The position numbers and the translations under genes were made by a program. From Yuukianura sp. NJ FZ-2021 (taxonomy: Eukaryota): a stretch of 64,000 bases of DNA. The stretch covers positions 2,480,001 to 2,544,000 of the forward strand of contig CM102290.1 in the NCBI GenBank assembly GCA_046563655.1, in the 5' to 3' direction. Below, in pieces: positions 1 through 64,000 of the stretch (position 1 is its first letter; each line of letters opens with the position of its first letter). The notes under the pieces are model-generated. The model was not told the origin of the DNA. It searched no databases and worked only from the letters and a program-made list of their open reading frames with translations.

Positions 1-2311
1 TAGAGTTTTTTTTTGAAAAAAATACTTGTATTGCCGATATGCACTAACTAATTACGCTTCATCGTTAACTAACCAGTCTTTTTTAGCTAAATATTTATTC
101 ACCCGTGGACTGTGAAATTTAAAAATTCAAAAATTCAACGCCGTTTGAAAACTTTCTTGTTGTATTTTTTTTTAATTATAGATTTTAATTTTTTCGTTCA
201 GTTTTATGAATTTTGAAAAAAAATTTAAACAAAGTTTACCACGAACGGAACATTTTTTTGTAAAATTGAAATAATTTGGAGGAAGAAATGCCGAAAGGAG
301 AGTTTTCTTATACAATTTATGCGTTTCTAATAATTTGTGCGTGGAGCCGTTAGCATGCTAAACGTTTTAAGTTAGTCTGCGTCTGTTTGAAGATTGTTGG
401 TTAGCTAATGTAAATGAAGGAAGAGTGCTACCGAGTTACCCCTTTGTTTCAGTTGATTATTTGGAATTTCTACTTGGAGGTTAGGAGGAGCAGGGGAAAA
501 GACAAACAGAACAATGGGATTAAGGTGAATGTTTTAAGTGATGCTGGAGGGATGATGAGATGAGGTAAGACGAGTAGCCGTGTTGGAATTGACTTATTCT
601 GGATAGACCCATGCACCTTCTATGTAAAATAATAGTAATTAAGTCCTTCCCTCCAAAACGTTTACTTTGTCCTTAATCCAACTAAATTGTGTCCAGAAGG
701 CATCTTCCCTTAAAACTTGTTCTCACAAGATCCGTTAAGAGAACAAAACAAGCAGATCACTTTCCATGCCAAATTCACTTATCAACCAAGAACAAGTCGA
801 CAAGACTTCAAAACCCAGAGGGTTTCGTGAGCAAAACGGCTTTCGTCATCGTCATATCTAAATTCTTACTTTCTTTTGAAAAAAAAAAATACAAGTCTGT
901 TTGTCAATGCACATTTTCTGACTTTCACCCGCTTTCACTCTATTTTATAGCGTAGTACTTGTTGTTTCAGTTATTCTCTTTTTTTTTTAATTTGAAAAGC
1001 TTCACGAGTGGAACCGGCGTACCCTGTTCAAAATGAAGTTAAGCGTTGATTCCAGGAGCTCGAAAATTTTGAGGTCTGGAAATTCTGTAGTAATTTTCAC
1101 CTCTAGGATGGAGTCATGGGTTGACCGAGCCGTTGCGTGTTAAGATTTGAAGACGATGCAAATTTGAGGGTGCAGACGATGTTTATCCATTTCATTTTCT
1201 CAAATTTAACCACTGTGTTGCTCTCTTTTTTTCTCGGTTTGTGGTGTTTTGGTGTTTATGCGCAGAATGGGCTTTACAAACCAGGGAACCGCATTATTCC
1301 TCAACCATAACCACCCTCCTCTACTCTTCTGTTTTGAAGGAAGTAAAGCACAAAATGGCCGAGCTCTTTTGTTTTAATTAATAAAATATCTCATCATCAC
1401 TTTTAAATAAAACGCCCCCTCTCAAGAACCCTGGGAAAAACTATTTGAATGAACTTGACACCCCTCGTGAGTACCCTTTGCAAACCAGGAGTGGGGGAGG
1501 ACGGGAACACGCCAAAGCGAAAAGTTGCATGAAACTATACTATGTCGTTTTCCCTTAACTTAAAAATTTTCCCGTGTTTACGCCTCAAACACTACTACAA
1601 TAGAAAATAATAATTTTTCTATTTGATATGAACGAGTAAGCAGTAGGAGTTGCCAAGTGAGTGGCTCAGATGGGAGTTCTATTTAAGTCCAAAAGTGTGT
1701 CCCTTAATGTGTCCTTAAGAGCCCTTTGGAAAAGAGGGGTGCCTCCCTTTGTTACATTCTGATTAACGAGCTAGGGCACGCCCGCACCTTCCTTCTCCTG
1801 CTTAAAACGATTCAACCTCTCCCAAATCCACTTTCCAATTAATCCTGTTGCCTTTTCATTTTCAGAAACTTAAAAAAATGCTTTTTCTAAAAAAACAAAC
1901 TTTTCTTCACTTTTTTTAAAAAACCATTTTTTTTAAAACTAAGCAGGTAACAGATGTGTCTTTGTTCAGTTTTAGGAGGAAAGTGAGAATGAGTCGTATT
2001 AATTAAAGGGCTCCTCTCAATAGGCTAGATGAAGGTGCAGTTACACAACAATGGACCCAATTACAGGTGCCTCTGAGAGGAGCCCTTGAATTATTACTTT
2101 GCATTTCCTAAACGGAGCAATTTGTCCAAAACGCTGGGCTCCCAAATACTTGGAACGTTCAAAAACCTATTAAGATTCCCACACACTTTGAAAATCACCT
2201 GCTTCAAGTACTAAAAGGCTCAAGGGTCCCTTGAGGAATATTGGTTTTGCGGAGCCTTGTTGACTTGACTTTTCTCCGTTAAGGGTCAAGTTTTTATTTA
2301 TTTGTCTTGAG

Positions 2312-2634
2312 CAAGGTTCGTAAACAAGAAAATACTTTTTCTTTAACAGGTTAGGCAATAAGTCACTTTTCTATTTTTTTTTCCCTAAAAAATTCCAAAA
2401 ATAAAAAGACAGTCGGCAACAGACGGCAACTGTCGCTTCCTTGGCAATTTTTGGAAACCGATTTTTTTATTCATTTTGAACGTTCAATTTGGTGCAAACT
2501 TTTTCTTGCACAAAAAGAGCAATAAACAACTTTGGGTGAAACATAGATGAAAGAAAAGTTTCGAGAGAGATTTTTTGAGAGTGGGACTTATTGTCTAACC
2601 TGTTAAAATCCACATTGTTGCTATAGGAACCTTG
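2312..2634. mobile_element. MITE, CAAGGTT-terminus family, copy 1 (P- or hAT-like non-autonomous element)
   Basis: CAAGGTT...AACCTTG ends. Perfect 8-bp TSD GTCTTGAG (2304-2311, 2635-2642). Inner inverted repeat 2343-2364 / 2585-2606 (21/22). Confidence 0.85.
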
Positions 2635-9821: not shown

Positions 9822-9972
9822 ATGCTCATGGTGGTGGAACACTCTGGCAGCCAGCCGAGTCGGCTTCTTTCGACATCAACACCAGATTCAGCAGCAGACT
9901 TTACTACAAAGAAACAACGCGTTTGGCCAATGGACTTTCCTTCGCAACTTCCCGCCATTCCCACTTCGGCAG
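9822..9972 (+). CDS. eyg: eyegone-like Pax gene, probable first coding exon (MLMVVEHSG...IPTSA)
   Basis: ATG at 9822, open to GCA G|GTAAAC donor at 9973. The phase-1 end joins in frame to the 12172 exon. No homology support for this N-terminal part, so it is inferred from splice phase only. Confidence 0.6.
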
Positions 9973-12171
9973 GTAAACATCTTTCACCACTTGAAAAAAA
10001 AATTTCGGAAATGCTGCTAGACTATAGTTTTGGTTTCAAGAATTTGTGTGAAATTCAACATAGATGAAGAAATTATACAAAAAAATAATTAGGATTATAA
10101 CATTTCCTTGTCCAAATTCTACCCTCTTGCAAAACCTGAACAGTTTTATGCAAAATCCATCAAAATATTTTTTATCTTAACTAAACAAGAAAAATTCTAA
10201 AACCAACAAACATCAGTTCATCTTTTTTAAAAACTTTCTAAAGGAAGAGACTCGTAAGCCCGGAAGCCAACTGGAACTGTCGCAACCGGGAGGAGGTGTT
10301 TCTCTCTTAATTAAATTTTAATGCCACCCACTTCCTCTTACACAATTGAGCAATTAATGCATTAAATATAAAGGCATCCAAGGCTAGAACTTAAAGTAGA
10401 AAAAAATTTAGATTATGGAAATATACGGAATTGATCGCTTTCAATTAAGATTTCCAAGGTCTATGAGTCTCATTTTACTCCGCTGAAACAGTTGAGCAAC
10501 ACTTGTCAGTTTAAAACGTTTTCCAAAACTAATTTTTATGAAAACAATCAAAAAATCCAAATGTACAAATATAACTACTCAATCAATTTCAGAACTATTT
10601 TCATTTAGAAAAACAACTGAACTGTACTACCTGCTTTATGTTTACTCTAGCAGAATATTTATTGACTTTTTTCAAACAATTCAGCGATACGTTTTGTTAA
10701 TTTCGCAAATGAAATATTTACTCCCTTTGACCAAATATTCGGAAACACTGTGTACAATATTTGTGCATTAACTTTCTAATTAAGTCTGTTCAATTTTCAT
10801 TAAAAGTACAAACATAGACAGACTAACTTTTAAAACTGAAAATCGATTCCATTGGTACAGTTTAACAAAAAATTGAATTTTGAGTATTAACAACAGTCAT
10901 TCCCCTTTATTACCCAGGTCCAATACATTCGCGATTTTTTGCTCGCATTAATTTACCTTTGGCTCTCAGTTGTATTTTTTAATTTAATTTGAAAACAGTT
11001 ATGAATTATTTATAATTTCAAGTACACAGCCAATATCCTCTGAGTGAGTCCATTGTTCTCAGCTACCTTGTATATTTTTTACATAGACCTAAAATCTGTC
11101 ACCCACTCTGTTAACAATAACATGCGGAGAAAAAAAATATGAAAACAGATTCAGAAACTTTGTACAATTCAGTTTTTTTTTATTTCAAATCTGCTTAAGC
11201 ACCTTGCGCAATTTCGACTGATGCTGAACAATAAAATGAACATGTCTGTGCCAAATTTCGAAATAGAAGGTAAACAGACTAAATTTTTCGAAGCTTCGTA
11301 AGTTCCCATTTTGCAAAGCCTTGATTAAAGTTTTAAATTAATTTGTAGGAGCGGAAGTATGTTAGGACATGACAGTTTAAAAGTTACAAGCTGCAGAAAG
11401 AATACTAATTTGTATTACGACCTTTGTTTTATCAAATTCAAGTCTAACTAAATTGTAGTTATGTTGATGGCCTTTGATTAGTAATTAAATGTAATTACAT
11501 TCTTCAGTTTAAATTTCAAATTCATCCGTACTATTTTTTATATAAGATTGAGTTCAAACTTTGAATAATTATTGATGACTAGCGGAATGAAATGTACAAC
11601 ACTTTTTGAGTGGAATTGAAAGGTTGAGTAATCACAATTTAACAGTTTGGAAATTTATGTCAGGAACATATGCAAGGAGGACATGAATAGTTTGAACACA
11701 CTTTAAATGTAAAAGGTATTTGCAGTTTGGAACTTAAACAGTGAACAGGAATTTAAAATGCTTCATGGTAGAGGAAGTACTATAATAACTTTTAGTACTT
11801 GTAGCTATTTAGTTTCGAACAATTAAATTTAAAAATCTACAACTTAATTTAGTAACTTAGACTTAACAAAGATATGGACGCCAGAGCTTGCTATTACATA
11901 GCAATAATATCAATTTTTTGTTCAAATTTAAGAAAAAAAATGCCAAGGGGTGCGAAAAATCAAAGAATGGCGAAAACCAAGTTCGGTTTTTATCTTAAAC
12001 CAGTTTTGTAATCTCAGTAGATGTCAACAATTGTAAAATTTAGAGTTTCCACTTGATCTCTTCGCGGGGGAAGACAAGTTACAGAATCGCTGCAACAGTC
12101 AATGCACAACTGTAACTTTTCTGTTTTTTTTTTCAAAGCTGCTTTTTATAAATTTGTGTTTTCTTGTTTAG

Positions 12172-12381
12172 GGCCGATGACTCCGCATCAATTACGTGAG
12201 TTGTATTCTAGCAGTGGTGGTGGATCGAGTGGACTCCCGTTTGGGTCATCCGGAGGTCACATTGGGCCGAATCCAAGACTACTTGACCTGTCACCAGTAG
12301 CACCTCTACGCTACGGCCTTCGCCCGTTCGATTTTGCACAGCAAATGCTACAGCAACAGGGAGCAGTTTCGAAACTGCTAG
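12172..12381 (+). CDS. eyg: eyegone-like exon 2 (GPMTPHQLREL...QQQGAVSKLL)
   Basis: Acceptor ttcttgtttag (AG 12170-12171), donor G|GTAAGA at 12382. Ends in GAVSKLLG, the remnant of paired-domain PAI helix 3 typical of Eyg/Toe. Confidence 0.88.
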
Positions 12382-12700
12382 GTAAGATGTACTCTCCGGC
12401 TTTTTCTTTGAGATACTTGTTGACCGCTGAGGTCATTTGAAGTGTTGTCCAGCAGCAGTTGAGAGGTTAGGTTATGTTAGTCTAACGTTTGGAAGACACT
12501 TTTTAAAGGCATCGGTGTGTCTCCTCCCTTGACAGTTGGACAACCCCTGGACTTGAGTGCATTTGACAATTTTACATATTTACACAATTTGACTTTCATG
12601 TCGATCCGAGGCCAGATACACTTTTATTACCTAGCTCTTCCTTTTCAATTGAGACTAGGGTAGGCGGGGAGGACTTGGAAGAAGGGAAGACCCTTGGTGG

Positions 12701-12969
12701 CAAGGTTTGTTCACTTTGATTTTCTTTAACAGGTTGAGTAATACCTCTTGTTTTTATAATTTTTAAAAAAAAAGTGTCCTTTCATTTCCGGGTATCCTAG
12801 TCCTAACAATACAGCCGAATTTTTTAAATTTTACATACAAACTGGTACCCATTTTTTGGATTGGTATCAAAATTGGTTCCAATTTTTCTTTTTCTCATTT
12901 ATTTGTCAACAAGCGAGGTAGTACTCAACCTGTCAAAGAAAAGTAACTTTTCGTTGTCAAGGAACCTTG
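12701..12969. mobile_element. MITE, CAAGGTT-terminus family, copy 3 (in eyg intron 2)
   Basis: Perfect 8-bp TSD CTTGGTGG (12693-12700, 12970-12977). Inner IR 12720-12747 / 12915-12942 (26/28). Confidence 0.85.
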
Positions 12970-15900
12970 CTTGGTGGACCTGATCCACCAAGGGCCCCGA
13001 CGATTCCCAAATGCCTCTTGACCTTGTTGTTCCACTTTTAAATTTATCGTCACATCTCTCCGAAGTACGAGAAACATGAATGGGTTGCCCGAGTAGGATT
13101 GATGAGTTAACTTTTCCCGTTGATAATGAGCTCAGATACTGAGGGCCCACACTCTAAGGGCCCCCGACTCCTCTAAGGCCCACTCGTTGTCGGAAGCGCT
13201 AGGCCCGTCGTAATTAAGAAATAATTCTGTCACTCCTAATTCCCTAAAAACATTCGAGGGGTTCACAAAGTTCAAGAGGGACTTTTTTAAACTTCTTTTT
13301 TTTTTACTAAAGACGCCTTCTTACGATCAAGATGTCTCGCTTGATCTTTCCATGATTTCCTAGTTACAACATAACGCTAAATTAAACTTTTAACAACTTG
13401 AAATTTTATTTATTCTCTTATTTGAAGTTCTTAAGTTTAGGTTTGAAATTTTGTAACTAGTTGAACAGCTTTTTTTGGACAAAATCTGTATCATTGACTT
13501 TCACACTAACTGCAAATTGTCTCTTTATTAACAAAATCAGTTGCCATTTTTAGTTTAATTCTGCTCAAGGTTTGGCGCAATTACATAACCGTGCTAATAT
13601 TCAAAATTAATCAAATATTAATTCTTAAATTTAGAATAGTTTAATTCATGTTTGAATTGGCATCGACTCACAAAGTTTTTTTTACATTGAGACTAGCCAT
13701 AATTGCAGAAAAATAACAAAGTAAATTAAATCTCCAGAACCCAGAACTGATTTGAGTAGTTTGACAAGAAATTAAAGTTGTTCGACTAAAAAAAGTATGA
13801 AATTTGGACATGCCATGCGCCGAGTGCCAAAGTGGACACTGGGAATGTTGCCAAGTCATAAAGTGGAAATGACAAAATAAACCGGTTCCACACTGTCCAA
13901 GTCCATTCAAAGGACAATGAGTTCTTGTTGGCAGATTTAAAAAAAAAACTGTTCCAGTCGAAGCAGTGACAAAGAATGAATCTGATGATGTGGTGTTTTG
14001 TTACATAGAAACATAGGAATCAGTTGATAATTGCAGAATAATAAGAAGTTCCACTTGAGTCAAAAGTACTTTTGAAGTCAATTACTCCCTTTTACTCCAT
14101 TGGCATGACCAAGTACTCTCCCGTGGTTCCTACTATAACCTAGTATGTAATTGGATTATTAACTTCTTCTTGTTTGCGTGTTTCAGTTTCACAATTTGTG
14201 GAATTTGGTTTTTCGAAAAAATCTTTCCAAAAAACAAGGGCCAAACGCTCAATTGTTTCTTTGAAACAATTTTTGTTTGAAAAGTGATATAATTTACGTC
14301 TTTTTTGTTCTTTAAAAAAGTTGAAGTTAATGTCGAAACCGTTTTAATGTTTCAAATTGTGTAAACTGCTGGATACTCTGAGCATCTTCTGATTTTAAAA
14401 CTTCCTTTCGTCTTCTCCTGTCTAATTATCCCAAGAATTATGACCAGTTTACGACGACTCTCAGTTTACAAAAGACTAAAGGATTCACGTCCCATTGTTT
14501 TCACTACGAAAAATTTATCACCTTTAGTTTGCAAAAGGAGAAACAAGGTTAGAAACATTTTTGCAACTTTGTTCCAACTTGTACTCACGAACGGCGTTGG
14601 ACAAGGTTCGCCAGTGTCTGGGGATTCCAAAAAAAATGTTTTTTTTTTCCCAAATTTTTTTAAATTTTGTAAGAAGAAAATCAGTATCGGATGCCGGATG
14701 CATGAGCAATTAAAACATCAAAAAATTAGATTTGATTTATTTTCACGTTGATTTTTTTCTTCTTGCAAAAATGTGAGAGTATCCATTTCACATCCAACGG
14801 TTTGAAGCGAAACTGACTTTCAGTTTTCGAGAAAATTGGAAAACGGCGGCATTTTTAAAATTACAAAATACAATAAATGGACGCTGACGTTCTTGTGTAA
14901 TAGAAAATGGAAGGAAAACATTGTTTAAGGTTTTGAACTTTGTAAACTCATGAAGCGAAGAAGTTTGAGTTTTTAACGAGCAAAAAAAGAGCATTGAAGC
15001 TCAGATCCTATAATTTGCAAAACAGTGTATTTGACCTCTCCGAACTTACGCAAAGTTAAAGGTCACGAACACTTATTTGGACAAGCTTGTTTTGTTTTTC
15101 ATTTTCGTGTAAACATTTTTCTGCCAATTTGTTCTTTACACAAAACTTTGCACCAACTGCTCATGCCAAAACTTTTTTTTGTTTTGAAGATGCTTAACAA
15201 ACCAAAACCTTTGGTTTATTCCCTCTCACACAAAAGTTTTTAGAGTCTGACAGCCTAGGCGTCTCTGAGCCATCTTCCAAAGTGTCTCAAGATTTATGGG
15301 CTTGAGATTTAAAAAAGCCGGGAGGAGAGGTTGGCTTTCATTGATTAAGGGTTGCTTTTCAAAGGGACCAGGAGGGCCCTTGGCCTTTGCCGCATCCAAA
15401 AGACACTTGGAAAACAAGAACTTTTTTTAGAAGGAAATCCACTGGGGAGTTTAAAGTGCGTTGAAAAAGCGCTTAACCTAGCAATGCATAGTCCTTGATG
15501 AATAATTTATTTGTTCAAGTCAATTAGAAACGTCTTCGAAGTTGGGCGATCTTACCCCTCCCAAAATCCGACTTAAATAAAACTAAAGCCATCTTCTGTA
15601 CAGGGTTGTTCTCACTTGAAGACGTGACAATTGTTTCCTTAAAAGTAGAACTTGTTGCTATAATTATTATTCCACAATCCTCCCCTCCTTAATGCTTTAC
15701 TGATCAAAGGGGTTTCCGCTAATGCATTAACTAACACCTAAACTTAACGCCTCCATTTCACTAAACAAAAGAATTACCAACCAACAATGGCTTTCAGACG
15801 CCCATTTAAAGGAAAACAGGAAAAGCCGGTAGAATTTGAACATTCAAAAAATTTACGTTATTCAAATTCTTCTGAAATTTTTCTTCGGGAAAAAAATCTC

Positions 15901-16459
15901 CGTTTCTAATTTTTCCAAATCCGTCGTTTTAAGTTTTGCCAGATCCTGCAGAAGTTAATTTTTTTTTTCAAATCCTGCCAAATTTCAATTTTTTTTCTAG
16001 CCAATTTAAAAACGCGGGTTTTAAATAACAATTCCTGAAAGCATCTCTTGGTTTTTCTGCATGTACTTTCGGCTTTGGGCTAAAAGAAGAAAAGTAGTTC
16101 ATAATTAACGCCTCTGTTCGACCATTCCATGGTTTGTGGGGTGTCATAATTAATTAATCAGCTCACAAAAGTGAAGACATGGAAGAAGTTGGACTCTGTA
16201 GGGATATGTGTCGCTTTGGAATAATTGAAAGGAGGGGAGAAGCATTAGAAGGCATTTGTGTTTTTGTAAAAGGCCGCCTCAATTTCTCTTCTTCCTTAAA
16301 CTAAACCGCTCGCTGAGTCGTGCTTTCTTTTTTGAAATCGTTTTTGTTCTAGATTCTCATTGAAATCCAATTTGTAACACAGTTCCCTTATAGGGAAATG
16401 AGCCAAATGTATTTCAATTCACAGCCTAAGTTTTAAAAATGTTTTTGTTTTTGTTGTAG

Positions 16460-16600
16460 GATCACTTCGACCACCCGGAATAATTGGAGGAAGCAAACCA
16501 AAAGTAGCTACACCAACCGTCGTTGCGAAAATTGAGCAGTACAAAAGGGAGAATCCAACAATTTTTGCATGGGAAATTCGCGAGAGACTCATTCATGATG
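16460..16600 (+). CDS. eyg: eyegone-like exon 3: paired-domain linker and RED subdomain ([47 protein letters not shown])
   Basis: Not in the ORF track; hand-translated. Acceptor ttgttgtag, donor G|GTAATT at 16601. GGSKPKVAT and FAWEIRERL are diagnostic paired-domain motifs. Confidence 0.95.
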
Positions 16601-20483: not shown

Positions 20484-20867
20484 GAGTTTGTACAAACAGT
20501 ACAGCACCTAGCGTCAGTAGTATTAACAGGATTTTACGAAATCGAGCTGCCGAGAGAGCTGCAGCGGAATTTGCAAGGGCTGCAGGTTATGCCGGACTTT
20601 ATCATCCTTATGCAGCAGCACTGTCATGGCCAGCCGCTGCTGCAGCGGCGCATCATCTCTGGTCACCTCTGAATCCTTCAAATCCATCTACTGCTGGAGC
20701 AGCAACGTTACCGCAATCAGCACTTCCTACTCTTGGTTCGGCTGGACTTGGATCGACTCCGGGTCATCAAGGTCAACTACCTTCAGATCTCTCCCATCCA
20801 GGAAGTCACAGTACTTCGTCAACCAGACCACCTTCTTCGGAGAGTCCGACGATTCGAACGAGTCACT
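20484..20867 (+). CDS. eyg: eyegone-like exon 4 (GVCTNSTAPSVSSINRILRNRAAERAAAEFARAAGY...)
   Basis: Acceptor ttttgcag (20483), donor T|GTAAGT at 20868. Encodes the end of RED (PSVSSINRILRN) followed by the Eyg-type RAAERAAAEFARAAGY segment. Confidence 0.95.
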
Positions 20868-20882
20868 GTAAGTACAGTACAC

Positions 20883-40100: not shown

Positions 40101-40104
40101 CGAA

Positions 40105-50580: not shown

Positions 50581-50652
50581 CTAGGAAAGGCACAAGAAAA
50601 AATTGACCTTTGACCTCAAAATTAAAATGTAAAATTGTTGTTTGTAACGTAC

Positions 50653-51780
50653 TCGAGTCATGATTTCCGATTGGCGGTTGATGTAGTTGTCGTAGTTGGG
50701 AAAGAAGTCACGAAAAAGCGGCTGGTAGGGTGGAATGGTCCAGCGACAACGTTTTTGTGCATCATCCAAGGCCTTCTTTGGAGGTCCAATTGGCAGAACT
50801 CGACAATGCAAAATCGGGTTGACAGTAGGACGTGGTCGTGGATGTGGTGTACTCTCCCAGATTTCACTCAGGTCGCATGTTTCGCACAGGAATTCGGGTT
50901 GCTCAATGATCTTTGACCCATGATTGGACGGAACATGGTCGCCACCGTCATTTTCCCCGTCAACTTCCGGTTCCGACTGTTGCTCTTGACATGGCTCTTT
51001 CCCTTCAAGTGGTTCTTCGCCTTGACCTGCACCTTGTCCTTGATCAGCATTTTGCTCTTGACTCGCATCTTGTCCTTGATCAGCATTTTGCTTTTGACCT
51101 GCATCTTGTCCTTGATCTACATCTTGCCCTTGACCTGGCTCTTGCTTTTGTCCAGCATCTTGCCCTTGACCTGCATTTTGCCATTGACGTGGCTCTGGCC
51201 CTTGACCTGCATTTTGCCATTGAAGTGGCTCTGGCCATTGACCTGCGTCTTGCCATTGGCGTGGCTCTTGCCCTTGAGCTTCATCTTGCCCTTGACCTTC
51301 ATCTTGCCCCTGACCTTCATCTTGGTCTTGACCTGCATCTTGTCCTTGGCATGGTTCTTGATCTTGACCTGCATCTTGTCCTTGGCATGGCTCTTGGTCT
51401 TGACCTGCATCTTGTCCTTGGCATGGCTCTTGGTCTTGATCTGCATCTTGTCCTTGACCAAGCTTTTGCTTTTGTTCTGGTTTTGTGTCCAATCTAACAA
51501 CGGAGTCCATGTCAATGTCAGGAAGAAGCATGAGCAGATCTTCCCTGATCTCTTCTTGCATAATACCAAGCTCATCGTTTCCACAAAAGTCAATACGAAC
51601 AGTGTCGTTGGCAGATGTGGTCACGTGCGATCCGCTCGTGCTAATCGTAATCCCCGATAATGTCAGGCGACTGATGTGAATTTCTGAGCTTCCACCGCTC
51701 TCAGGTAAGTCATTTGGCTCGCTGACTGTGGCCTCAGCTGGATCTCCGGAACCATAAGCTTCTTGGTTTGGCACGACCAT
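50653..51780 (-). CDS. nested antisense gene, exon 1: acidic Gln/Gly-repeat protein (MVVPNQEAYG...QSEIMTR)
   Basis: Part of the 420-codon ORF 50581-51843. First in-frame ATG is at 51780, with an in-frame TAG further upstream. Minus-strand donor CGA|GTACGT at 50652. Confidence 0.8.
51020..51460 (-). repeat. coding tandem repeat, 18-nt unit with 36-nt higher-order period (QGQDAG / QDQEPC / PEPRQWQNAG variants)
   Basis: cttgacctgcatcttgtccttggcatgg-type units repeated with variation on the + strand. Confidence 0.9.
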
Positions 51781-53950
51781 GATAAATGTACTTGACAACG
51801 GTAAAGCTCGACTTCGTGAAGCAGTTTTTAGAAAACGATGCAAAAATCGGCGCGATTGAAGAGTTGAAGTGGAGAGTGCTCGCCAGAAACGAAACTAGCG
51901 GGATCAAAAAACTGACGAGGAAGAACACGGAGCAAAAAAAGCAACTATAAACATCTATGTTTAACTTTTGAAAAAGTCAAGCTTCGCGTTGCTACGGGGA
52001 CGAATGTAACCGTTTCGCCCATTTTTTATACATATGTGTTTTTTTTTTCTGTTTATTATTTGGAGCATGCAGTCGATTTGGTTTCCATGTTAAAATTTAG
52101 AATGAAAACCGAAGCATTTTGGTTTTTGAAAATTGTTCGAATTTGAGTCTTGAAAAAACTTTTTCTCTTCTTGTTTCTTACTTCTTTTCTTGATGGTTTT
52201 CCGTTTGACTTTCTCCACTTAACTTTCCCGCCCCCACACTCCCCCTCCTCCGCCTCTACGCTTCCATCCGGTGGGAAATGGTGAAGTGCGAACAAGAAAA
52301 GTCCTCTGTTCCGGTTTCAGTCTGTAGAAAAATCCGCCATTTCCTTTTTCTTTTTTTCCCGCAAACTTTCTTCCTTCGTCCTCAGCAGTTTCTCTACTCT
52401 TAATTTTTTCCTTCTCCTCTTCTTCTTACGTTCTTTCTCGAGTGTTTATCCAATGAAACACAATTTCCGTTCGTTCCTCACGATCGTTTTCACCACCAGT
52501 TTTTCTTGGGTTAACAGGGGAAGGAAACACTGCTCTAAAAAGAACGCTTCAAAAAAAACCTCAAGTCCTTAAGCATTTCCCTTCTGAGAAGCGAGGTGTC
52601 TTGAGACTTGCTTTCTCTTATTATCATCATCTAGCCTCCTCATCTTACGCTTTAGAGTGAGATTACAAGGTCGAAGTTTCTACACCAGTCAAAGGTTATT
52701 TTGTTTTTACAAAAATTTAAAACAGCTTGTACCGCACAAAAAATACAAATTAAGCAAAAACAAAACAAATTTCATTCTACAAGAAACAGTCTAAGTTAAC
52801 GCGTGAAAAGAAAGCAACAATAAGAAAAGAACATTTCTAAAAAGTTATAATTATTGTTCCAACTTTCTCCCAGGATGTTTAAAAACAATTTTTTAAATTG
52901 GTACAAAACTAAATTACTCCAGCCAAATCCAGCTTAAGGTTAAGAATTGCAGTCCTGTTGAGTTAAGTGTGTAATTGGATTGTTCTTTTTTGTGTGTTTA
53001 GTATGATGTCCATGTCACGGTAGAATTGACACGAGAGGGGTTTTGCCCATTACAAAGAAAGGGAACAAAGAACAGAAAAAAAGAGAGAGTTCAAAACTCG
53101 GCACAAGGAACTTTGTTAGAAAATTCGAGACTTTGAAGAAGAAAATTTACAACACTTATGGGACACATTTCAGAAAATAGCTCTCTTTCCCCGTGTTGTC
53201 TTCTAACCCTCTCGTAACTGTTCCTTCCAATTCCTTTTTTTCTTCCTGGAACAAAAATAGAAGAAAAGACAAGAGGACCATCTTAGTAGTAGTACATGGG
53301 CATTTCGTATGGATTTGCCCTGGGAGAGGTGGAGAAAGTGCGTGCAGTAGAAAGTGAACTATAAAACTTTGGAATATGCATCCAAGCTAGTCCCACTTCT
53401 CCACTTCCGTCTTTTCAAAAAACACAACAACAAGGAGGGAGTGAGCGGGAAAATGAAAGTTTTGTTCTGGAGATGTTTAGAGGCTGAAGCAAAAGGTTCG
53501 GGTAATTCGGAGGTCTAAAAACTATGTTCAGTTGCAGTACGAAGGAGATAGGAGTCTTAACTTGGTTTTATGAGGCCTCAACCTTGGAATTGTTTCCAGT
53601 CGACCCACCACAGCCACCAACCTAACCTCGTCCCCTCGCTTTCCCCACCACAGTCACCACCACTACTTGATTCCAGAATTGAAATAATCATAATCGTTAG
53701 GAAGGAAATGGAGCTCCAGTGACATATTTCTTCAAGTCTTCCCGCTTTCCTGCTCTTTCCAAGTCCAATTACATCCTCAACCTTCCAGCATTAATTCAAC
53801 AACCACTTGTCTCCTCTTCTCCATTTATATTCATCGAAGGGATTAACTTAGAGGTCAAAGGTCAAAGTCTTATCTGTGTCCACTTGGAAAATGAACTTTT
53901 TAACTGCTCACTGCACTTTAGTTTGGAAATAAAACTGCATCGTTTCTCAG

Positions 53951-54940: not shown

Positions 54941-55531
54941 GTAAGTGCTTATGGTACTACGTATATCGCTGTAAAAAGTGACTTCAGAGCAGGCAAAATA
55001 AAATAACGTTATGAAGCCAAATTTGAAATTTCTGAAAATAAAGCGCGTAAGGGATCATGTTTCAAATTTAGTTTAGAGGCGGGGAAAAGAGAAAGTACGG
55101 AGTAAGGAAGGAAAAATAAAGTTTAACAGCCACTGCAACACAACCCCCACAAGAATTGTTCCAAATTACATTTGCATCGTAAGTTTAGAACAGGGTGACA
55201 GAAAGAGCCTTAAGGGAACTAGACTTATTATCCTTAATTCCATATAAACAAATATAACCAAAAACTCAATTTAAAAAAAAATTGTTTTTCGCCAAACATT
55301 GTGATAATAAATAAAAACAAAATTTTGTTTGCTCACTCTTCAGTTAATCAGGATGGATTTCTGTTAAACATACGTTACTAGCATTGTTTTTTTCAAAAAT
55401 GCGTTTCAAAATTCTACCAAAATATTTAGAATATTCAACCAACTAGGTCTTCGCAGTAGGGCTTACAGAAGTAAAAAATTTTTTTGTTCAAAATTTGGAA
55501 AAATTAATTGTTTTCGTTTTGTTTTGTGTAG

Positions 55532-55834
55532 GTCAACGGTGTGATAACAAATACAGGTCACAGTGTGATTTTCTACGCTGGACCGTGGGATGAAGAGGGT
55601 ATTGATGGCAGTGAGAACGGAGGTGGTGGGTTCTTTGTGAGTGGGAACAATGGTGCTGCGGGTGGGTCCGGTGGGAACGGTGGTGGGTCCAATCCCAGTC
55701 CTAAGACGCTCGTGAACATTACAGGCGGTCCACTCTCCTACAGATATCAATTTCATGAAATCCATATCCACTACGGATTGCGTGATGACGGTGGATCGGA
55801 ACATACTGTTGACGGATATGCATTTCCGGCAGAG
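55532..55834 (+). CDS. CA10: CARP exon 4 (VNGVITNTGHSVIF...YQFHEIHIHYG...SEHTVDGYAFPAE)
   Basis: Acceptor ttgtgtag, donor GAG|GTTTCT at 55835 (weak). Contains the NTGHS, HxH and GSEH alpha-CA motifs and a Gly-rich insert. Confidence 0.92.
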
Positions 55835-56335
55835 GTTTCTACATTTTCACATTCCTTTTATGTTCCCACTTTTCCACAAGGTTACCAACAGAACAATTCA
55901 AGGCTTTCACATAACTTTCTCTTTCACAGACTAAAAAACTGTTTCCCAGGTCACGCAGAGGCATGTGTACCACGCATTAGTTTGGACTATGATTATAATT
56001 TGAGCCTAACTTCTTATGTTTGATGTTCCACTGTAACTTGCTACCCTTTACCCACCCCTGACACAAGTTATTGTTCCAAAAACCTCCTGATTCACCGATT
56101 TTATTTGGCACTGGCTCTTAGGGTGTTACACTTTCCCACTTTGATTTCATTTAATTACTTAACACCTTAGTATAGTAGAAACGAAGGTGAGAGACACCAT
56201 TCATGCCAATATTTGGAAGGAACACGCCCACTTTTTAAAGATCCTCCACATCATGCCAACAACACATTCATCATTCTCCCAAAATAAACAAATCGGGGAG
56301 GCTTTCACTGATTCTGGTTTCTTTTCACTTTGTAG

Positions 56336-56431
56336 CTTCAAATGTATGGATTCAATTCCCAACTTTACAGTAACTTCAGCGAGGCCGTCTACAGGTCTCA
56401 AGGAATCGTTGCCATTTCGGTCTTGCTTCAG
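56336..56431 (+). CDS. CA10: CARP exon 5 (LQMYGFNSQLYSNFSEAVYRSQGIVAISVLLQ)
   Basis: Acceptor ctttgtag, donor CAG|GTAAAC. AE-LQ shows Gln in place of the third zinc-ligand His. Confidence 0.93.
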
Positions 56432-56869
56432 GTAAACCAACTGCAATTCAACCTATAACTAGAAAAAAAATTATAAAATTACAAATTATAATAAATATTT
56501 TTCTTAATTTCAAGTTTAAAATTTGTGACTATTTTGCACAAACTTTTCTAAGATTTTTGAAAAATAAAACTAAAGCTGCACAGCAAGCTTAAAAAACTTT
56601 ACATTATTTTTCAATTGGTTCAAGATTGTAAAAATCTAAAGAGATTTGAGGCACGTTGACTTTGACGAGCTTAAATGTGTTTTGGACAGTCACAAATGGA
56701 TTACCGTGACGGAAAATTTTGAATTTTGTGTAAGCAGCAGTGTAATCATTTGTCTTGTTCCTTCCTAAAGTTTTTCTTTGTTTGATTCCAAGATGTCTGT
56801 TTGAAAAATGGAAGGAAGGAGTTTGTGGCGGCTAAATTTGAGTATATTTTTCCCTTCTCTTTTGTCTAG

Positions 56870-56936
56870 CTCGGTGATTTATCAAACCCGGAACTTCGGT
56901 TACTGACTGATCAACTAAGTAGAATAAAATTCAGCG
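56870..56936 (+). CDS. CA10: CARP exon 6 (LGDLSNPELRLLTDQLSRIKFS)
   Basis: Acceptor tttgtctag, donor G|GTAAGT at 56937; phase-consistent with both neighbours. Confidence 0.92.
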
Positions 56937-57738
56937 GTAAGTAAAAGCAGTGTATACATCCTCTTTCCCTCTGTAGATCATCCCAGCGATCACTTTCCCC
57001 TTGTTCACAACCACACAAGTATGAGCCCACACGGTTAGTTAAGTTACATATAAATCCCTAGCCTGGAGTAGTACTCTGGAGCTACTGCTACGGTGAAGGG
57101 GAAGAACCGTGGGAGCCCCTGAGAAGAATGGAAAAATTGCATTTAATATGTAAATGAGGCCAAGATCCTGGAGGCTGAGGTCATAAAAGATGCAGAAGGT
57201 TGCCAGCGGTTTCACGGTTTGCATTCCTCAGCCCAAGTCCACACATTCCGCCCCATAACTTACTACACTTTCACAACCAAACTCATATTTTCCACCACCA
57301 GGGAAAGTTAGTTCCATGCCGGGCCAAAAACAAAAGAGCAGGGCTTGGAAACCGACAAAAGACAGGGAGAATTACAATTCACCACTTTCACTTTCACCGC
57401 CAAATCTCTACGTTTCGGCGCTGATTTTAAAATCCTTTGCACTGGGGATGAAGAGCTAATCCGCACAATCCGCATACAAAAAATTTCCTGAGAATTCGCA
57501 CATTTTTTCTCGGTCATATCGCTAGAGATTTACTTCATTAAAAAGCGTAACTTGAACCTACGCGTGTCCAAACTCGTAAAAATTTTGATAGCCAGATAGT
57601 AAACAAAAAATGAAAGCATTTTTTGTCGCATTTTATTCAAGGACTATACGTTTGCTGTGAAAATTTGAACAGTTAGTTAAAATTTCAGGTTTAGCACAAC
57701 GCTTATATTAGTTTAACATTGGTTTTGATTGGTTGAAG

Positions 57739-58019
57739 GTCAAAGTGCCCCAGTTCAGCGACTGTCGCTCCAAGCCCTCCTTCCAACTACTGAGCAGTAC
57801 ATGACCTACGAGGGGTCAACGACCATGCCTGCCTGTCACGAAACCGTAAGCTGGATTGTGATGAACAAACCCATCTACATTACCAAACAGCAACTGTACG
57901 TCCTCCGGAAACTGATGCAGGGGGATGAAGAATATCCAAAAGCTCCACTCGGAAGCAACTTTCGTCCACCTCAAACACTTCATCATCGACCTGTCCGAAC
58001 TAACATTGATTTCACCAAG
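57739..58019 (+). CDS. CA10: CARP exon 7 (GQSAPVQRL...YMTYEGSTTMPACHETVSW...NFRPPQ...RTNIDFTK)
   Basis: YEGSTTxP-C-E-V-W and NFRPPQ alpha-CA motifs. AAG acceptor at 57736-57738, donor AAG|GTAAGG at 58020. Confidence 0.93.
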
Positions 58020-59397
58020 GTAAGGAGAAAGTTCTGGAAGGGAACTCAGTCATTCATTCATTTCACTTTTGGCACTTTTCTCATCATCTCCTCCCTTCGA
58101 CCCCACTTTCACATAACACCATTCCCACACGGACCATTTCAGCTAGAACCAAGATTAGGACTAGAAAGAAAGTTTCCATGCATTTCAGCACCAATAATCA
58201 ATCCAATCCACTGCCCACTACTTCCCTCTCTGCAACTGAACCATTCCCAAAAACTTAACCAATGGCCTCTGACTCACAGGATCCATTACCAGAATCCAAA
58301 AAAATAAAGTTTGTAGCAATTCTGCTAACTCAAACGAACAAAGTTTAGCCTAACCTAACCACTTGTCTACCAAAACTCAAAAACTTTCACCCCTTAATCT
58401 TCTTTTTCCTTTAAAAATGACACGAAGTATTCCTCTCAAAATATTACTCAAAAGTTTCAAAAACAAATTTTTCATTTTTCTTGCCTTTAAGCCATGCGTA
58501 GAGATCCTCCAAAGTTCCGCTAAACTGTAAAGACATTGTTTTGCTTACCAAAGTGGTTTAGTGTCACTTTGGTTCCTTTGCGTTCAGAAGAGAATGGAGA
58601 AAGTAGAGGAAAGGATATTGTCGTTAGTTGCCATTGGGATAAAAGTCTATTGTGTCCCCATCGCAGTATTTTGGTCCTGGAAGACTCTTCCAAGTACTTT
58701 GTCCCATGACATTGGCATTACTCCATCCCAGAATCACATTCCACTCCATTGCCCATCACAGCATCTTCACCTTTAGTTCCAGTAGTAGGAGTGTTTAACT
58801 TGTTTCTTCCAGAAACAAGGCTCCCTGTACCCTCATCAATAATTCCTAGACAAATTAGGGAAATTGAGATGGAATCAAATGCCTTGAAGGGCAGAAAGAG
58901 ACAAGATCAAGGACGTGAGGGGGACTCAAGGGCTTCGAACAAGATCATTACAAGTACTTAAGTGACAAGTAGGCAAATACTCCAATCGCTCGTCTTCCCT
59001 TCCTTTCCCTCTTCAATTTCATGCTTCAAGACTTCCCTAATCGCATATGCTTTCTCCTCCTAAAATCTCTCCAAAACATCCTGCTATAAATCCACAAAAA
59101 AAATAGTCTAATTTTTAGTTTTAGCAAAATTTAAACCGCCACGCAAAATTCTACTCTTATTTGCTTGTGCTTTTTTTTATTTTTAGCCGTCACAACTTTC
59201 TCTTTTGGCAAATCGTAAAAAAAAACAAGTTTTTCGTTTGCTCGTTTTTTTTTTGTTTTTTGCCATTTTTTATATTTGAATTTAAATTTCATTCCAAAGC
59301 TTGACATAGTTTTTTCGGCAACAGATTGAAAATCAGAAAATCATTGAAAATATGATATTGATTTTAAAATGTGATTTGAATATTATTTGTTTTTTAG

Positions 59398-59443
59398 GGA
59401 ATGGAGTGTAGTCATACGATGCAGAGGGAAATGTACTATAAAG
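59398..59443 (+). CDS. CA10: CARP exon 8 (GMECSHTMQREMYYK)
   Basis: Acceptor ttttttag, donor AAG|GTAATC at 59444. Resembles the C-terminal Cys...MYYK segment I recall from invertebrate CARPs. Confidence 0.85.
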
Positions 59444-59761
59444 GTAATCCTGACTTTTTTGAATCATGTTTTCTAAATTGTTTTATTGGATGCTGGTTGT
59501 TCCACCTTGCTGTGAACGCCAGTGTTCTGAACAACACAACCGTCATGGCCAAGAAAACAATTGGTTTCTTCTTGTTCAAGCACTTGTGTCTTGCGGCCAT
59601 CCATCCATGTTCCTATGAATATTTGAATCGAATCCTCCCCATTCTTGATCTTTCCAGTCTGGTTATACACCAAGATGATGTCGTTGCCCTTGCAGTTACA
59701 GTTTGAACTTTACGGCTATATTTTGCTTAAAAAAATAATATTTGTTTCTTGCCATGAATAG

Positions 59762-59784
59762 CAAACACATGGAAGACGCCATAG
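59762..59784 (+). CDS. CA10: CARP terminal exon (ANTWKTP*)
   Basis: Acceptor gaatag (59761); the phase-1 join gives YYK-ANTWKTP-TAG. The nine exons total 1092 nt, 363 aa plus stop. Confidence 0.8.
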
Positions 59785-60860
59785 CCACTTCAGCCGGAGT
59801 TTGTTCCATCACTTTTCCACACCGCCCAAATTCAAAATTCAACTCAACAACAAACGGAGCTTGAAAAACAGAAGCAAAGTTTCCGTCTCACGACTTTTGT
59901 GTAAAACAACAAAAGTTGATCATGTCACTTTCATCGCGCCGGTTTGTCTTACCTCAACTCCATACTACAGTCCCTTATACTACACAAAATTGACATTCAT
60001 GACAGGATGAATAATGAACTTTGACCCCTCTGGAGGTTCTCTTCATTCTTCCCATTCACCTTAACAACATAAATCAGTCCTCCTTTCTTCCAGGGAATAA
60101 GCGTCTTCTCGCCAGCCGCAAGCCAGTGCAAGCGATGGAACCAGAATACAGGAACAGGGGTCCTGCTTTCTCTTTTTTCTAAAAAAAATTTTTGGACACA
60201 GTTTTTTTTGTGTCGTCGTGTCGTGTGTGAGAAGATGCTAATTTTATGCATAGGACTAGAGGATGTTCGTCTACGGTTCGTTAGAAGTGATTTAGGTGAG
60301 GAAGACGAAAGGAAGGAAGAAGCGATGTCCCGGACTTAATCAGATTCCAAGCAGAAATCCAAGGAACACAAGCCTGACTTAACATGAAGAGGAGACAGGA
60401 CACAGAAAACCCTTGTTAGAAAGTGAGAAGTCGAACATTTCCCCAGTGAAAGTGCATCCCCTTTCCACTGAATTAAAAAATGGAAGAAGGAAGGCAGGGA
60501 AGAGGCAAATGGAACTGTATACATAACCTATCTAACATTCTCCTGACTACGGTTCTTTTGGTAATCAGATGTAGATTAACAAGGGGGGTCCCTTGTCTTC
60601 TACTTACCAAGGGACAAGGAGAAAACAAGTTCCACACTTTTTGTACACTTCAAATTGCTTCCTAAGGCCCTCTAACACGGTGTTCTTATTATCATTAATT
60701 GTGTACAAAAAAAATAATTAGAACTTAAAACTTAACACTTTTCTGATACTTTAGAACAACAAAAAACTTCATTAAACTTGTTGCTTAATTTAAATTGGAA
60801 ATATCAAAAGTTATGCAGACGGGATCACCTTTGTCTCCTTTTGATGATGATGATGAGATA

Positions 60861-60866
60861 AATAAA
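60861..60866 (+). promoter_or_regulatory. candidate poly(A) signal of the CARP gene
   Basis: AATAAA about 1.1 kb after the stop in UTR-like sequence. Confidence 0.3.
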
Positions 60867-63800
60867 TTGAAAATTACGAACGCGCAATTCGTTACAAAAA
60901 CTAACACAACCTAAAATGCAATATTTTCCAAACTTCATTTAATTTTTTTGAAAAATATTTTCTCAACAAAAAATGTGCTAAAGGTATTATTTTTAGATGA
61001 AAATTTGAGCTTTCACCGTAGTCCAAAGTATATACCTACAAAGATTAGAGAAATGTAATTGGTAGCAGAAAGTACGAAACTAAAAGTAAGTTGTGTTTGT
61101 AACTTTGTAATTTTTTCAAATCCACGTACATACAGAGAGTCCTGTTGATTGGGTTGAGATCTCTGGGACTGCGGGACTGAGTCCAATGAACCTAAATCCT
61201 TGGAAATGGTTTCCAATGGATAGGTTAGTGTGAAGGAGTTAATTAGAAATTCTGTGGACTCTGTCGAGAAAGTCTGAGGATTCGGAAGAGTGTGAGTCTA
61301 TCAATTAACTCCAGGGCTGCCTCGATCCAATTCCTTGGGTGTTGTAAGGAATTGAGCAAAGGAAGGTCAGTTCCTTCCAGTTTCCTTTGGCTCAAGGACT
61401 TTCTCCTGCTGGGTTGTGGGAGAAAGTGGTCATTGTAGCCGAAGGAAGACATCTGGGAGGTTCTGGACTAATGTTGATTTATCACTTTCTCAAACCTATT
61501 TCATCCTCCTTCTCACCTTCCACCCACTAGCACACGACTTAGTAACTAAGAAAGAACAGGAGAAAGTACGGCAGTAACTACGATTGGAATCGAATGAGTA
61601 AACATTAGGCTACAACTTTCCATTATGATCCATCTCCAGACTCAAATCAATCAATTTTGTTACGCAGCAACGCTTCAACGCAACACTTTATCATCCTTCA
61701 AGTCAAATTGAAACAGGATTCACTTGTGGAAGAGTACAAACCAATGCTTGACCTTAAGCCTAATCCTGACTGTGATACTGGCTCAAAATTTTTTAGTTTG
61801 AAACCGACCTGACACTTTCTTAGCCAAAAATTGCAAAACTTTTTTTACTCGACTGAATGAGATTGATTCCAACGGTATGGATCGTAGTAAAAAATGAATT
61901 TTTACGACAATCCTTCATTAGTTTAGAATATTTTGAAAATAAAATTTGGAAATACAGATGTAATGGATTTGAGATTGAAGTTAGTGTATTTGTAAGAATG
62001 AGTTTATTGTTAACTAATTGCGCTGGATGAGCATGGTGAAAGGATGTTTTCATGTGGTCATAAAAATGGATGTTCAGTGACGATGAATTCAGTTCTTTCG
62101 GTTCAATGAGAAGGAAGATGGTGATGGAGAAAGTGATATAGGAGCACCCACCCTCTTCCCCTCTCCTGTTCAAAATGTTCAAACGTTGGAAATGTTCAAA
62201 CTGTTCAAATTGAATGTTCGCCACTTCTGGAAGGAGTCGAGGGTGTTTGGAACAGTGGTGAATTTCCTATTTCACAGTGGGTGGACAGAGGGCAAGTGAA
62301 CTGAAAGGAAGAAACCTCCAATTTCCATTTACTCACACGCTCAACTGTGACTCAAAAAGAACTTTCACTTGGAAATTGAAATGGACGAGAGCATCTAGTC
62401 CTCTTCCGTCCATCATCCGTCCAAGGACCAAATAGTAATGGACACAAGATCCCCAATGTCACTGCAGTAGTGGAATGACTAAGGCGATAGACGGCTTTGG
62501 GCACCACAGCAGCTTTCGGTAAAAATTAAAACTAACTTCGAAATTATTTTTTAGAAAAAACTTTTTTTTATAAGATTTTTCTAAAAATTTGACACTAAGT
62601 CGTAGCAGTGTCGGAGTGAGTAAAATGCCCAGGACGGTAGTACAAAATGCCCGTGTAGTTGGCTAACCCTGGTAAAGACGGGCATTCCAAAGAATCAGTT
62701 TGCTGGAATTGATGACACTTTTACAAATGTAATTTGTCTTTGAGGGTCCACTGACTCCATTTGCCCAAACTCCTCAAGAGTAAGCTGTTTTAGAACATTG
62801 TTTAAAATTGACCAATTTGAACAACGGGAAACCACCTGACATTTACTCTTAAAACACTTCTGGAACGCATCTTTTGCACTCTGTGCGCTGTAACGTAAAT
62901 CAATGCTGCTCAATCAACATTTTCCAACACTGAACCTCGTAAAATTAAATCTAAACTACTACTAGTAAACTTGAAATTTCGATTTAAAAAAACCTGCAGT
63001 TCCTTATTGAATTTTGGTCTTTAGTGGCAAGAGAACAAATTTTGAAAAAAAAAAGAGAAAGTTTATGAAAGCTTTTCTCCAGATGTGACGTAAAACCGGA
63101 AGGTTTATTCGTTTTCTCGCTTTCTGTTTAACCGCATTGACTTTCTCTTTTCATTTAGAACTCGAAACTTTTGGAAATTTCAAAAAGTTTACCAAAAATT
63201 TGAGAAATTTAGTGCAATTAATTCCTTTCTCACGCCTCTCACACTCACAACCCTTTCATTCCCTTCGTACATAATTGAGCAAAAGTGTCAATTTCTGAGT
63301 AGCTAATTTGTAAAAACGAATCCTTTTGTAAATAGTCGCGGCTTTATTGAAAAGTTAACTGAAATTTCATGTCAACCAGCACACGCACATAGGATTTGAC
63401 ACTAATTGAAATGTCTTCTAAAATCTAATTCACTAATCGATTCCTTTCTTAGTGTGTGAGTGTAACGATTTTAAAAAAGAGTCTGACTACATAAATAAGG
63501 TACAAAAAGCTTCAGATTTAGAAAATGTTTTATTTTGGACGCTGCATTAAAAACGGAACTCTTGCGTTGAAATTTCCAACAAAAGTTTAAAATTGTCAAA
63601 AAAGAGAAAGAAGATGCAGTGTTAAATATTTAAGGCAGTGAAAGAAAAGTGCAGGAAAGTTCTTTGAAGGAGGAACTTCCTTTCCATTTATTTTGGAAAA
63701 GTAGGAGTAGTGGAACTTTGTGTTTTTGTTTTGTTGGATTCTGAATGACAATGACTGATCCATGACTGCTAATTTCTGTCTATTTCTTCGAGCTAAGGGA

Positions 63801-64000
63801 CTCCAGGAAAAGTGTCACTGTCAACATGTCGCCTGGGCATTCTGCACTACAAACCCCCATCACTCCACTTAGCATCTTCCTCCCTTCAAACACTTCTGCC
63901 ATTCAAGGACTCCGTTGCCACTAGGTTAGGTTGGGGAACAACCTTCAGTTGACACCGGAGAAAGCACAGTCGAAGTGACAAGCGAAGTGACAGACGAGTC

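Follow-up and report, generated by a model that had tools for sequence, protein, structure and literature searches.

Keto/amino strand asymmetry running outward from A/T-rich troughs in a 64-kb window of springtail DNA

Flips in strand composition are classic markers, readable from sequence only, of the sites at which replication or transcription starts, and the known ones lie at the scale of genes or at far larger scales. At replication origins, both in bacteria and in the N-domains of mammals, the GC skew and the TA skew jump upward at the bidirectional start, which often lies in open, nucleosome-poor DNA; this skew acts over 10 kb to megabases and falls toward the next terminus. In unicellular fungi, McLean and Tirosh reportedly found in 2011 that the two ends of a gene, 5′ and 3′, carry GC skews of opposite sign. 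GC and TA skews downstream of the sites where transcription begins, and likewise at bidirectional and CpG-island promoters, are described in parts of PMC3787257, and AT skew at the points from which transcription starts and at nucleosome-depleted regions is described in parts of bioRxiv 10.1101/2024.01.04.574144, in which an excess of G over C together with T over A on one strand is said to typify replication- or transcription-coupled asymmetry. The nucleosome-inhibiting energy barriers (NIEBs) of vertebrates are A/T-tract barriers that lie about 1 kb apart within and between genes, and in humans their borders carry an asymmetric arrangement of poly(A) and poly(T) that derives from Alu tails (PMC4966569, in excerpts). 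Here we analyze a stretch of 64,000 bases from the springtail Yuukianura sp. NJ FZ-2021 (GenBank assembly GCA_046563655.1, contig CM102290.1, positions 2,480,001 to 2,544,000 of the forward strand), hereafter the window, in which the DNA is C/A-rich on the 5′ side and G/T-rich on the 3′ side of narrow A/T-rich troughs, whichever strand is read.

The measures of polarity were restricted to statistics that are invariant under reverse complementation. At the AT peaks with at least 78% AT in 60 bp (n = 65), the flanks were C-rich on the left and G-rich on the right (C|G) in 28 cases and of the opposite order (G|C) in only 3, the remainder being G|G (16), C|C (14) or zero on one side (4). When the peaks were defined by a rule of 1.5 standard deviations (sd), 36 of the 72 peaks were C|G and 4 were G|C, with 39 versus 5 for the keto/amino flip (i.e., G+T against A+C), and the mean right-minus-left difference at these peaks was +17.4 ± 2.5. 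The flip, taken as G minus C in the right 200 bp less G minus C in the left 200 bp, was correlated with how AT-rich the central 100 bp were (r = 0.28; 0.37 for keto/amino), and it rose monotonically from -8.8 where the centre had less than 45% AT to +13 where it had more than 82%. The correlation was positive in eight out of eight 8-kb blocks (0.20-0.48) and lies more than 6 null sd out, the r values of 2000 circular shifts having an sd of 0.045 and a maximum of 0.14. An earlier note on this DNA, made by eye, had claimed that the skew flips from C to G across each trough, in the geometry of a bidirectional process starting there. A consistent flip was indeed found at the AT troughs, beyond all of the circular shifts, and so was the outward geometry, with C-to-G and A-to-T flips at narrow AT troughs that are symmetric with respect to strand and occur regardless of the host gene.

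The same polarity was observed with a parameter-free cross-correlation. The correlation between G at position x and C at position x plus lag was +0.05 to +0.10 where the lag was +50 to +300 bp and, for negative lags to about 300 bp, lay between -0.02 and -0.16, and both sides converged at about 400 bp; that is, C-rich patches come after G-rich ones within about 375 bp and not before them, and T-rich patches come after A-rich ones, on either strand. The asymmetry index calculated from lags of 50-300 bp reached 0.125 in the G-to-C and 0.082 in the A-to-T comparison. It was unchanged on the reverse complement, in agreement with the claim of an identical reading on the two strands, and its sign inverted on plain reversal. 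The value of 0.125 was above all of 500 nulls generated by random reversal of 1.5-kb blocks (sd 0.028, maximum 0.078), and the index was positive in each of the six 10-kb chunks of positions 1-60000 (0.056-0.185). By region, it was 0.118 in the upstream DNA, 0.063 in the gene for an eyegone-like Pax protein (positions 12001-23000), 0.127 in the intergenic DNA at 23-50 kb, 0.122 in the surroundings of a minus-strand gene and 0.211, the strongest value, in a block that contains a carbonic-anhydrase-family gene (55001-64000). Introns and intergenic DNA therefore show the pattern alike, as the earlier note had stated.

Narrow AT peaks of 60 bp were the strongest anchor of the polarity. The troughs themselves are heterogeneous mixtures of A-runs and T-runs, and an A-run-before-T-run order was not seen in them (AAAA followed by TTTT within 5 bases 161 times, the reverse 198 times). 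A-runs of at least 6 bases (n = 145) had a left flank of -5.6 ± 1.4 and a right flank of +4.2 ± 1.4, and T-runs of at least 6 bases (n = 154) had -5.8 ± 1.4 and +6.5 ± 1.4, respectively, while the strongest flips were found at troughs balanced in A and T. Since A-runs and T-runs are both two-sided, the poly(A) tails of retroposons do not explain the skew, and this candidate was rejected. The outward GC skew, measured from 131 troughs defined by a lenient rule, was +0.07 to +0.12 over the initial 120 bp, about 0 by 350 bp and slightly negative at 400-550 bp. The same reach of about 330 bp was observed in the 15 intervals of at least 1200 bp, so that it is independent of the spacing of the troughs. 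No clear phased GC oscillation was detected in 262 trough flanks, a test of low power.

When all bases outside the troughs were assigned to the nearest trough and oriented outward (49,122 bases), the flanks contained 10423 G, 8768 C, 15556 T and 14375 A, i.e., a GC skew of 0.086 and a TA skew of 0.039. Purines and pyrimidines were near even, with no purine loading. The words that drive the asymmetry were GT, TG, GTT, TTG, TGT and TTTTG against their complements, and AG/GA against CT/TC was slightly opposite. The skew is thus one of keto against amino bases. Keto/amino asymmetry is of the kind that unequal rates of complementary transitions produce. The sequence context in which C is depleted was uninformative on this point, as the skew of the neighbouring bases confounds it. 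In addition, two words showed an outward bias beyond composition, GTGGGA (22 versus 4) and TGGGAA (38 versus 11), and the observed/expected ratio of CpG in the trough flanks was 0.68.

The earlier note had further described modules between the troughs, with a G(T)-rich left half and a C(A)-rich right half, and had quoted ten examples. The G-left/C-right part of this description held in all ten, with GC skews of +0.24 to +0.61 in the left halves and -0.30 to -0.75 in the right halves; the T/A part was weaker: eight of the left halves had a positive TA skew (one zero, one negative) and six of the right halves a negative one (one zero, three positive). The clearest module (36540-36950) has a G half at 36540-36800 (G92/C39, skew +0.40) and a C half at 36810-36950 (G8/C57, -0.75), and upstream of it lies an AT trough at 36280-36340 (poly-A, AAATTTTAAAATTT) with the AT peak at 36307. 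The trough at 37060-37120 (peak 37089) has one of the strongest flips, from a G-C value of -48 over the 250 bp to its left to one of +47 over the 250 bp to its right, and is followed by the module 37150-37720, whose G half (37150-37380) has a skew of +0.61 and whose C half (37390-37720) has one of -0.31. The flip is also strong at the trough 32640-32710 (peak 32673; left -46, right +46), which comes after the module 32160-32600 (+0.33 and then -0.52), and in the module 43740-44230 the left half is C-poor and T-rich (G90 C26 A59 T106) and the right half is G-poor (G30 C56 A59 T46). The complete form, a G half and then a C half, was found in 25 of 65 inter-trough intervals and the opposite form in 11. 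The first half of the interval was more G-rich than the second in 43 cases, less in 21 and tied in 1, and it was the more keto-rich half in 50 cases and the less keto-rich one in 15. The whole-module sawtooth is a tendency only.

Nor did the proposed repeat of 0.5-0.8 kb emerge from the data. The autocorrelation of the skew in 50-bp bins was 0.25 at 50 bp, positive to 150 bp, about 0 at 200 bp and -0.03 to -0.07 at 250-450 bp, with no rebound at 500-800 bp, and the spectral power of the skew had no peak and was about level at periods above about 400 bp. The AT peaks under the strict rule (n = 66) were broadly spaced (median 863 bp, interquartile range 604-1197 bp). With the lenient rule the median spacing was 395 bp, and the median trough length was 27 bp at 80% AT or more. 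It is very improbable that the polarity is due to chance, to a local peculiarity of these 64 kb or to the way in which the troughs were chosen. Such an explanation could point to the single window and to the fact that patches of local skew are frequent in the DNA of animals, but the parameter-free cross-correlation is polar, the signal exceeds the block-reversal nulls and the circular shifts, all of the 8-kb and 10-kb blocks examined are positive, and it survives the removal of the ten quoted examples, after which the first half was more G-rich in 35 of 55 intervals and G|C exceeded C|G by 18 to 10.

Broad GC-rich modules could instead be the organising centres, for example as stable recombination hotspots with GC-biased conversion, at which deamination of the 3′ single-stranded tails would leave G/T-rich DNA to the left and C/A-rich DNA to the right of each centre. 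The sign predicted from the deamination of 3′ tails would agree with the pattern. Furthermore, the 300-bp GC maxima (n = 23) were G|C in 11 cases and C|G in none with 150-bp halves, and 8 versus 1 with 250-bp halves. When flips were picked by skew alone, those from G to C coincided with a local maximum of GC (AT 0.55-0.57; mean 0.62), and those from C to G were just mildly AT-rich (0.61-0.65). These two results keep the module-centred reading alive. However, narrow GC peaks had no polarity (14 versus 9 of 34; 9 versus 8 of 25 with exons masked), unlike the narrow AT peaks, and the skew is highest beside the troughs and fades with distance, in long intervals too. We consider a module-centred origin distinctly unlikely.

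As controls, 80 loci of animal DNA were retrieved from metagenomes with an alignment of seven Pax proteins; they are Pax loci of unidentified animals, and some are near-duplicates. In the 26 loci of at least 6 kb, the correlation of flip and AT ranged from -0.28 to +0.27, and its keto/amino version from -0.38 to +0.16, so that the window was highest in both, and the cross-correlation index had a mean of 0.001 and an sd of 0.047, against 0.125 in the window. When the same trough rule was applied to the loci of at least 3 kb (435 kb, near-duplicates included), C|G and G|C were 65 and 61, compared with 22 and 2 in the window. With four near-duplicates dropped, the 402 control peaks found by the 1.5-sd rule included 103 C|G and 78 G|C, and their mean right-minus-left difference was -0.04 ± 1.07. 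The polarity is therefore general neither to the non-coding DNA of animals nor to A/T runs. Strong local skew, on the other hand, is ordinary: the local variance of G minus C in the window was 2.1-3.6 times that of dinucleotide shuffles (n = 30) at scales of 50-800 bp, and the variance ratio at 200 bp was 3.8, within the range of 1.3-6.0 of the 26 control loci. It is the polarity alone that is unusual.

Two of the control loci, L022 (1-14162) and L042 (1-10008), come from one sample and had the highest G-to-C indices of the 26, 0.108 and 0.082, without an A-to-T component. In their exons, both of them and L020 are among the loci most similar to the window (about 80% identity). Pooled with L026, from the same sample, they gave a weak result in the trough test (+5.1 ± 2.8, 33 peaks). 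The values of L022 and L042 are a hint, and only a hint, of a lineage trait. In L048 and L004 the AT peaks were C|G versus G|C in ratios of 8:1 and 7:1, with indices of only 0.038 and 0.053; many loci were tested, and these two may be due to chance.

Several features together suggest a substitution bias that runs outward from the troughs: mirror symmetry, a narrow anchor at AT peaks, a short and fixed reach, a transition-type signature, occurrence irrespective of the host gene and the lack of a repeat family. The reading that we favour, tentatively and as something short of probable, is that the polar pattern is the footprint of an outward, transition-type, strand-asymmetric substitution bias that starts at open A/T tracts. 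According to this proposal, the A/T-tract troughs, which are found every 0.4-1.2 kb or so at no fixed period, would be open DNA that unwinds easily and is probably free of nucleosomes; some DNA transaction would start there repeatedly and in both directions in the germ line; and C-to-T or A-to-G changes, or both, would occur in excess on the strand that runs 5′ to 3′ away from the trough, over about the first 300 bp. The result would be C/A-rich DNA 5′ of each trough and G/T-rich DNA 3′ of it, on either strand. The sign of the bias fits an outward strand that is more often single-stranded, as the non-template strand is in divergent transcription and the lagging-strand template is at an origin; it also fits an outward strand that is preferentially newly synthesized, as in gap filling after the resection of a break.

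The leading candidates for the process are short divergent transcription and break-repair synthesis. Taken singly, short divergent transcription appears unlikely and gap-filling synthesis after breaks at open DNA a little less likely than that, whereas origin-proximal replication would be improbable and a repair asymmetry at the edges of nucleosome-free DNA slightly more so. In a more far-reaching version, which we hold to be rather unlikely, the A/T tracts found about every kb would be hard-wired and evolutionarily stable start sites of a germ-line transaction in this springtail lineage, and the footprint would map them; meiotic break repair, replication initiation and pervasive short divergent transcription are then the candidate transactions.

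Several points weigh against this outward substitution bias or against particular versions of it. The pattern was analyzed in one 64-kb window, and the mutational origin is an inference from base composition. The AT-rich control loci (30-36% G+C, 55-104 A/T runs each) had no polarity; a general A/T-tract mechanism would be expected to show there, so that a lineage-specific factor must be assumed. The reach of about 330 bp is fixed and does not scale with the trough spacing, which argues against a classical replication skew arising from fork polarity. Outward core-promoter words were not enriched in the window: TCAGT, which we take to be the word of the initiator (Inr), occurred 52 versus 49 times, and TATAAA, presumably the TATA word, 14 versus 13 times. 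Dense promoters are thus unsupported. AATAAA occurred 39 times in each direction, and among the poly(A)-signal, promoter and splice-site words there was no excess beyond composition. Dense transcription of a developmental Pax locus in the germ line would be unlikely. Finally, divergent transcription is rare in Drosophila, as stated in the sections available of bioRxiv 10.1101/224642.

The earlier note had offered three explanations: nucleosome-excluding barriers with outward asymmetric mutation or repair, dense bidirectional initiation of transcription or replication, and a carpet of decayed foldback elements. The first two are still candidates. In the self-BLAST of the window, which is nearly repeat-free, the 15 hits all fell within an exonic tandem array (in the frame at 50581-51894, see below), and no inverted pair and no dispersed repeat was found. 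The Smith-Waterman scores of cognate arms (19.3) did not differ from those of non-cognate arms (19.3 ± 3.0), and the G halves were mutually dissimilar (mean 19.5). Hairpin stability showed no clear excess over shuffles that preserve each half (mean z -1.3): for the ten modules z was -0.71, +0.42, -1.62, -1.28, -2.24, -1.88, -1.90, -0.81, +0.97 and -3.57, the last belonging to the module 61140-61700, the sole outlier and the only one below -3. The foldback carpet was accordingly dropped, as was a repeat family, for which there were neither dispersed self-matches in the 64 kb nor non-coding matches in the 80 related loci.

The comparison was extended to the contigs of four public DNA runs, which differed from the window at 332 sites and by 102 indels; the 40 sites and 12 indels listed are too few for their orientation to the troughs to be read. 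In runs from the same sample, contig joints skip, among other stretches, positions 27460-29882 (2.4 kb, with TTAA between) and 36323-36942 (620 bp, with the clearest module included). The joints end in A/T runs, have sides of 21-28 letters and lack terminal inverted repeats (9 and 8 of 40 bases match), and for these reasons we regard them as unreliable and not as evidence for mobile modules; they may be assembly-graph shortcuts or real indel alleles. In addition, a 13-kb contig of run X3 at 26001-34042 has 121 other letters and 129 gaps, which points to the presence, within that same sample, of another haplotype that has diverged or of a sibling lineage, while the contigs of run X1 are near-identical to the window.

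Very old elements, now decayed, might nevertheless have been inserted into A/T-rich targets; these could have been mobile elements, foldbacks or elements whose interior is first G/T-rich and then C/A-rich. Such an internal composition would look alike in both orientations, and the two skipped segments could be taken as insertions. Against this stand the absence of inverted pairs and of arm complementarity, the dissimilar G halves, the joints in A/T runs without terminal inverted repeats, and the two-sided skew at A-runs and T-runs alike; moreover, skews of 0.3-0.75 would hardly outlast a decay that has erased all sequence similarity. On these grounds, an origin in old elements is improbable, on a par with the repair asymmetry considered above.

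The window is free of N, its G+C content is 38% (A 19700, C 12192, G 12065, T 20043), and no large-scale trend of the skew was found across its 64 kb. A complete gene for an eyegone-like Pax protein lies at 9822-22769 on the plus strand, and the polarity persists in its introns. The six stretches of exon matched on this strand by tblastn with P0001, a protein of Allacma fusca (9822-9974, 12156-12404, 16453-16602, 20483-20881, 21101-21334 and 22071-22664), cover residues 1-523 of that protein between 9822 and 22664. P0001 (572 bits) and P0002 of Folsomia candida (430 bits) were the top two among 46 arthropod Pax proteins, in keeping with a springtail source that is most likely nearer to Allacma. 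The Pfam matches at the ends of the Pax exons were below threshold (PAX 17.2 bits, cut-off 22; Homeodomain 17.6 bits, cut-off 22.9). Two plus-strand exons of the carbonic-anhydrase family are located at 55532-56023 and 57729-58307 (Pfam PF00194, E = 1.8e-11 and 2.4e-26, respectively); we presume that they resemble the inactive proteins related to carbonic anhydrases. On the minus strand, an open frame of 437 codons rich in Gln, Gly and Asp (50581-51894) contains at 51020-51459 an array of about 24 copies of an 18-bp unit, which encodes a Gln/Gly/Asp-rich repeat; its single Pfam match, the low-complexity Glutenin_hmw, is under its cut-off. This exonic array is the only large one, the tandem repeats of the window amounting to 10 short rows. 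No recognisable gene was found in the 27 kb of intergenic DNA at 23-50 kb, where the long open frames that were scanned had no Pfam match; on this ground and for the lack of purine loading, a coding explanation of the pattern was rejected. The tRNA and Rfam scans of the window gave 0 matches each. When the window was compared by blastn with the 80 related loci, the exons matched and no non-coding match was obtained.

This gene content bears on the possibility that the pattern is functional and has been selected, as cis-regulatory blocks or as non-coding transcription units whose sites or RNA signals are oriented relative to the A/T spacers. In its favour, the window is the landscape of the eyegone-like Pax gene, with its gene-free flank of 27 kb, and the outward-biased words GTGGGA and TGGGAA resemble factor sites, presumably of the Su(H) type. 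However, the asymmetry is spread over all G/T versus C/A words and not over a few motifs, the polarity is found equally inside the unrelated carbonic-anhydrase gene, the Pax loci of other animals have no polarity, and the two most closely related loci match the window in exons only. Selection for such functions is thus quite unlikely, and we give it slightly less credence than the module-centred origin.

A keto/amino flip about every kb with a reach of about 330 bp would point to stable germ-line initiation sites that are much denser than those marked by the skews described so far, and, if this proved true, a map of start sites could be read from the sequence alone. If the pattern is genome-wide, it would provide a testable handle on the interplay of open chromatin, DNA synthesis or repair and mutation in a non-model arthropod, and it would call for caution with models of neutral evolution that assume strand symmetry in non-coding DNA. 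The earlier note had known of no named feature that accounts for the pattern, and our search agrees with it: in the open-access literature and preprints searched, no sub-kilobase keto/amino polarity anchored on A/T tracts was found in animal non-coding DNA. In a review of the NIEB field (PMC8228248) neither "skew" nor "asymmetr" occurs, and in the portions available of a 2023 review of strand asymmetry (PMC10030826) nothing of this kind appears under nucleosome, enhancer, GC skew or bidirectional.

Several known systems come close to the pattern. As at replication origins and N-domain borders, the GC and TA skews both go from negative to positive at the troughs, but in the window some 1 kb separates one site from the next, and the reach is not tied to this spacing. 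The skew at divergent promoters is alike in its geometry, with G over C and T over A for a few hundred bases outward and mirror symmetry; in contrast, the centres in the window are A/T runs in introns and in a gene desert, about one per kb, with no annotated or detectable genes at them and without an outward bias of Inr or TATA words. Foldback elements and miniature inverted-repeat transposable elements (MITEs) share the order of a G-rich and then a C-rich arm, and the same reading on both strands, whereas the modules described here lack complementary arms, copies and terminal repeats. The sawtooth of GC skew at fungal gene ends is likewise tied to unit boundaries at the kb scale, but it is anchored on protein-coding genes in compact genomes, while the present one is in animal non-coding DNA. 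The troughs may share with NIEBs the character of A/T-tract barriers at about kb spacing, in genes and between them; no keto/amino skew of the flanks is described in the excerpts of PMC4966569, and the asymmetry in the window is independent of tract polarity and of any repeat family. The pattern is thus of a known kind, a flip in strand composition like those at bidirectional start sites, and its scale, its density and its setting are new with respect to the open-access literature searched.

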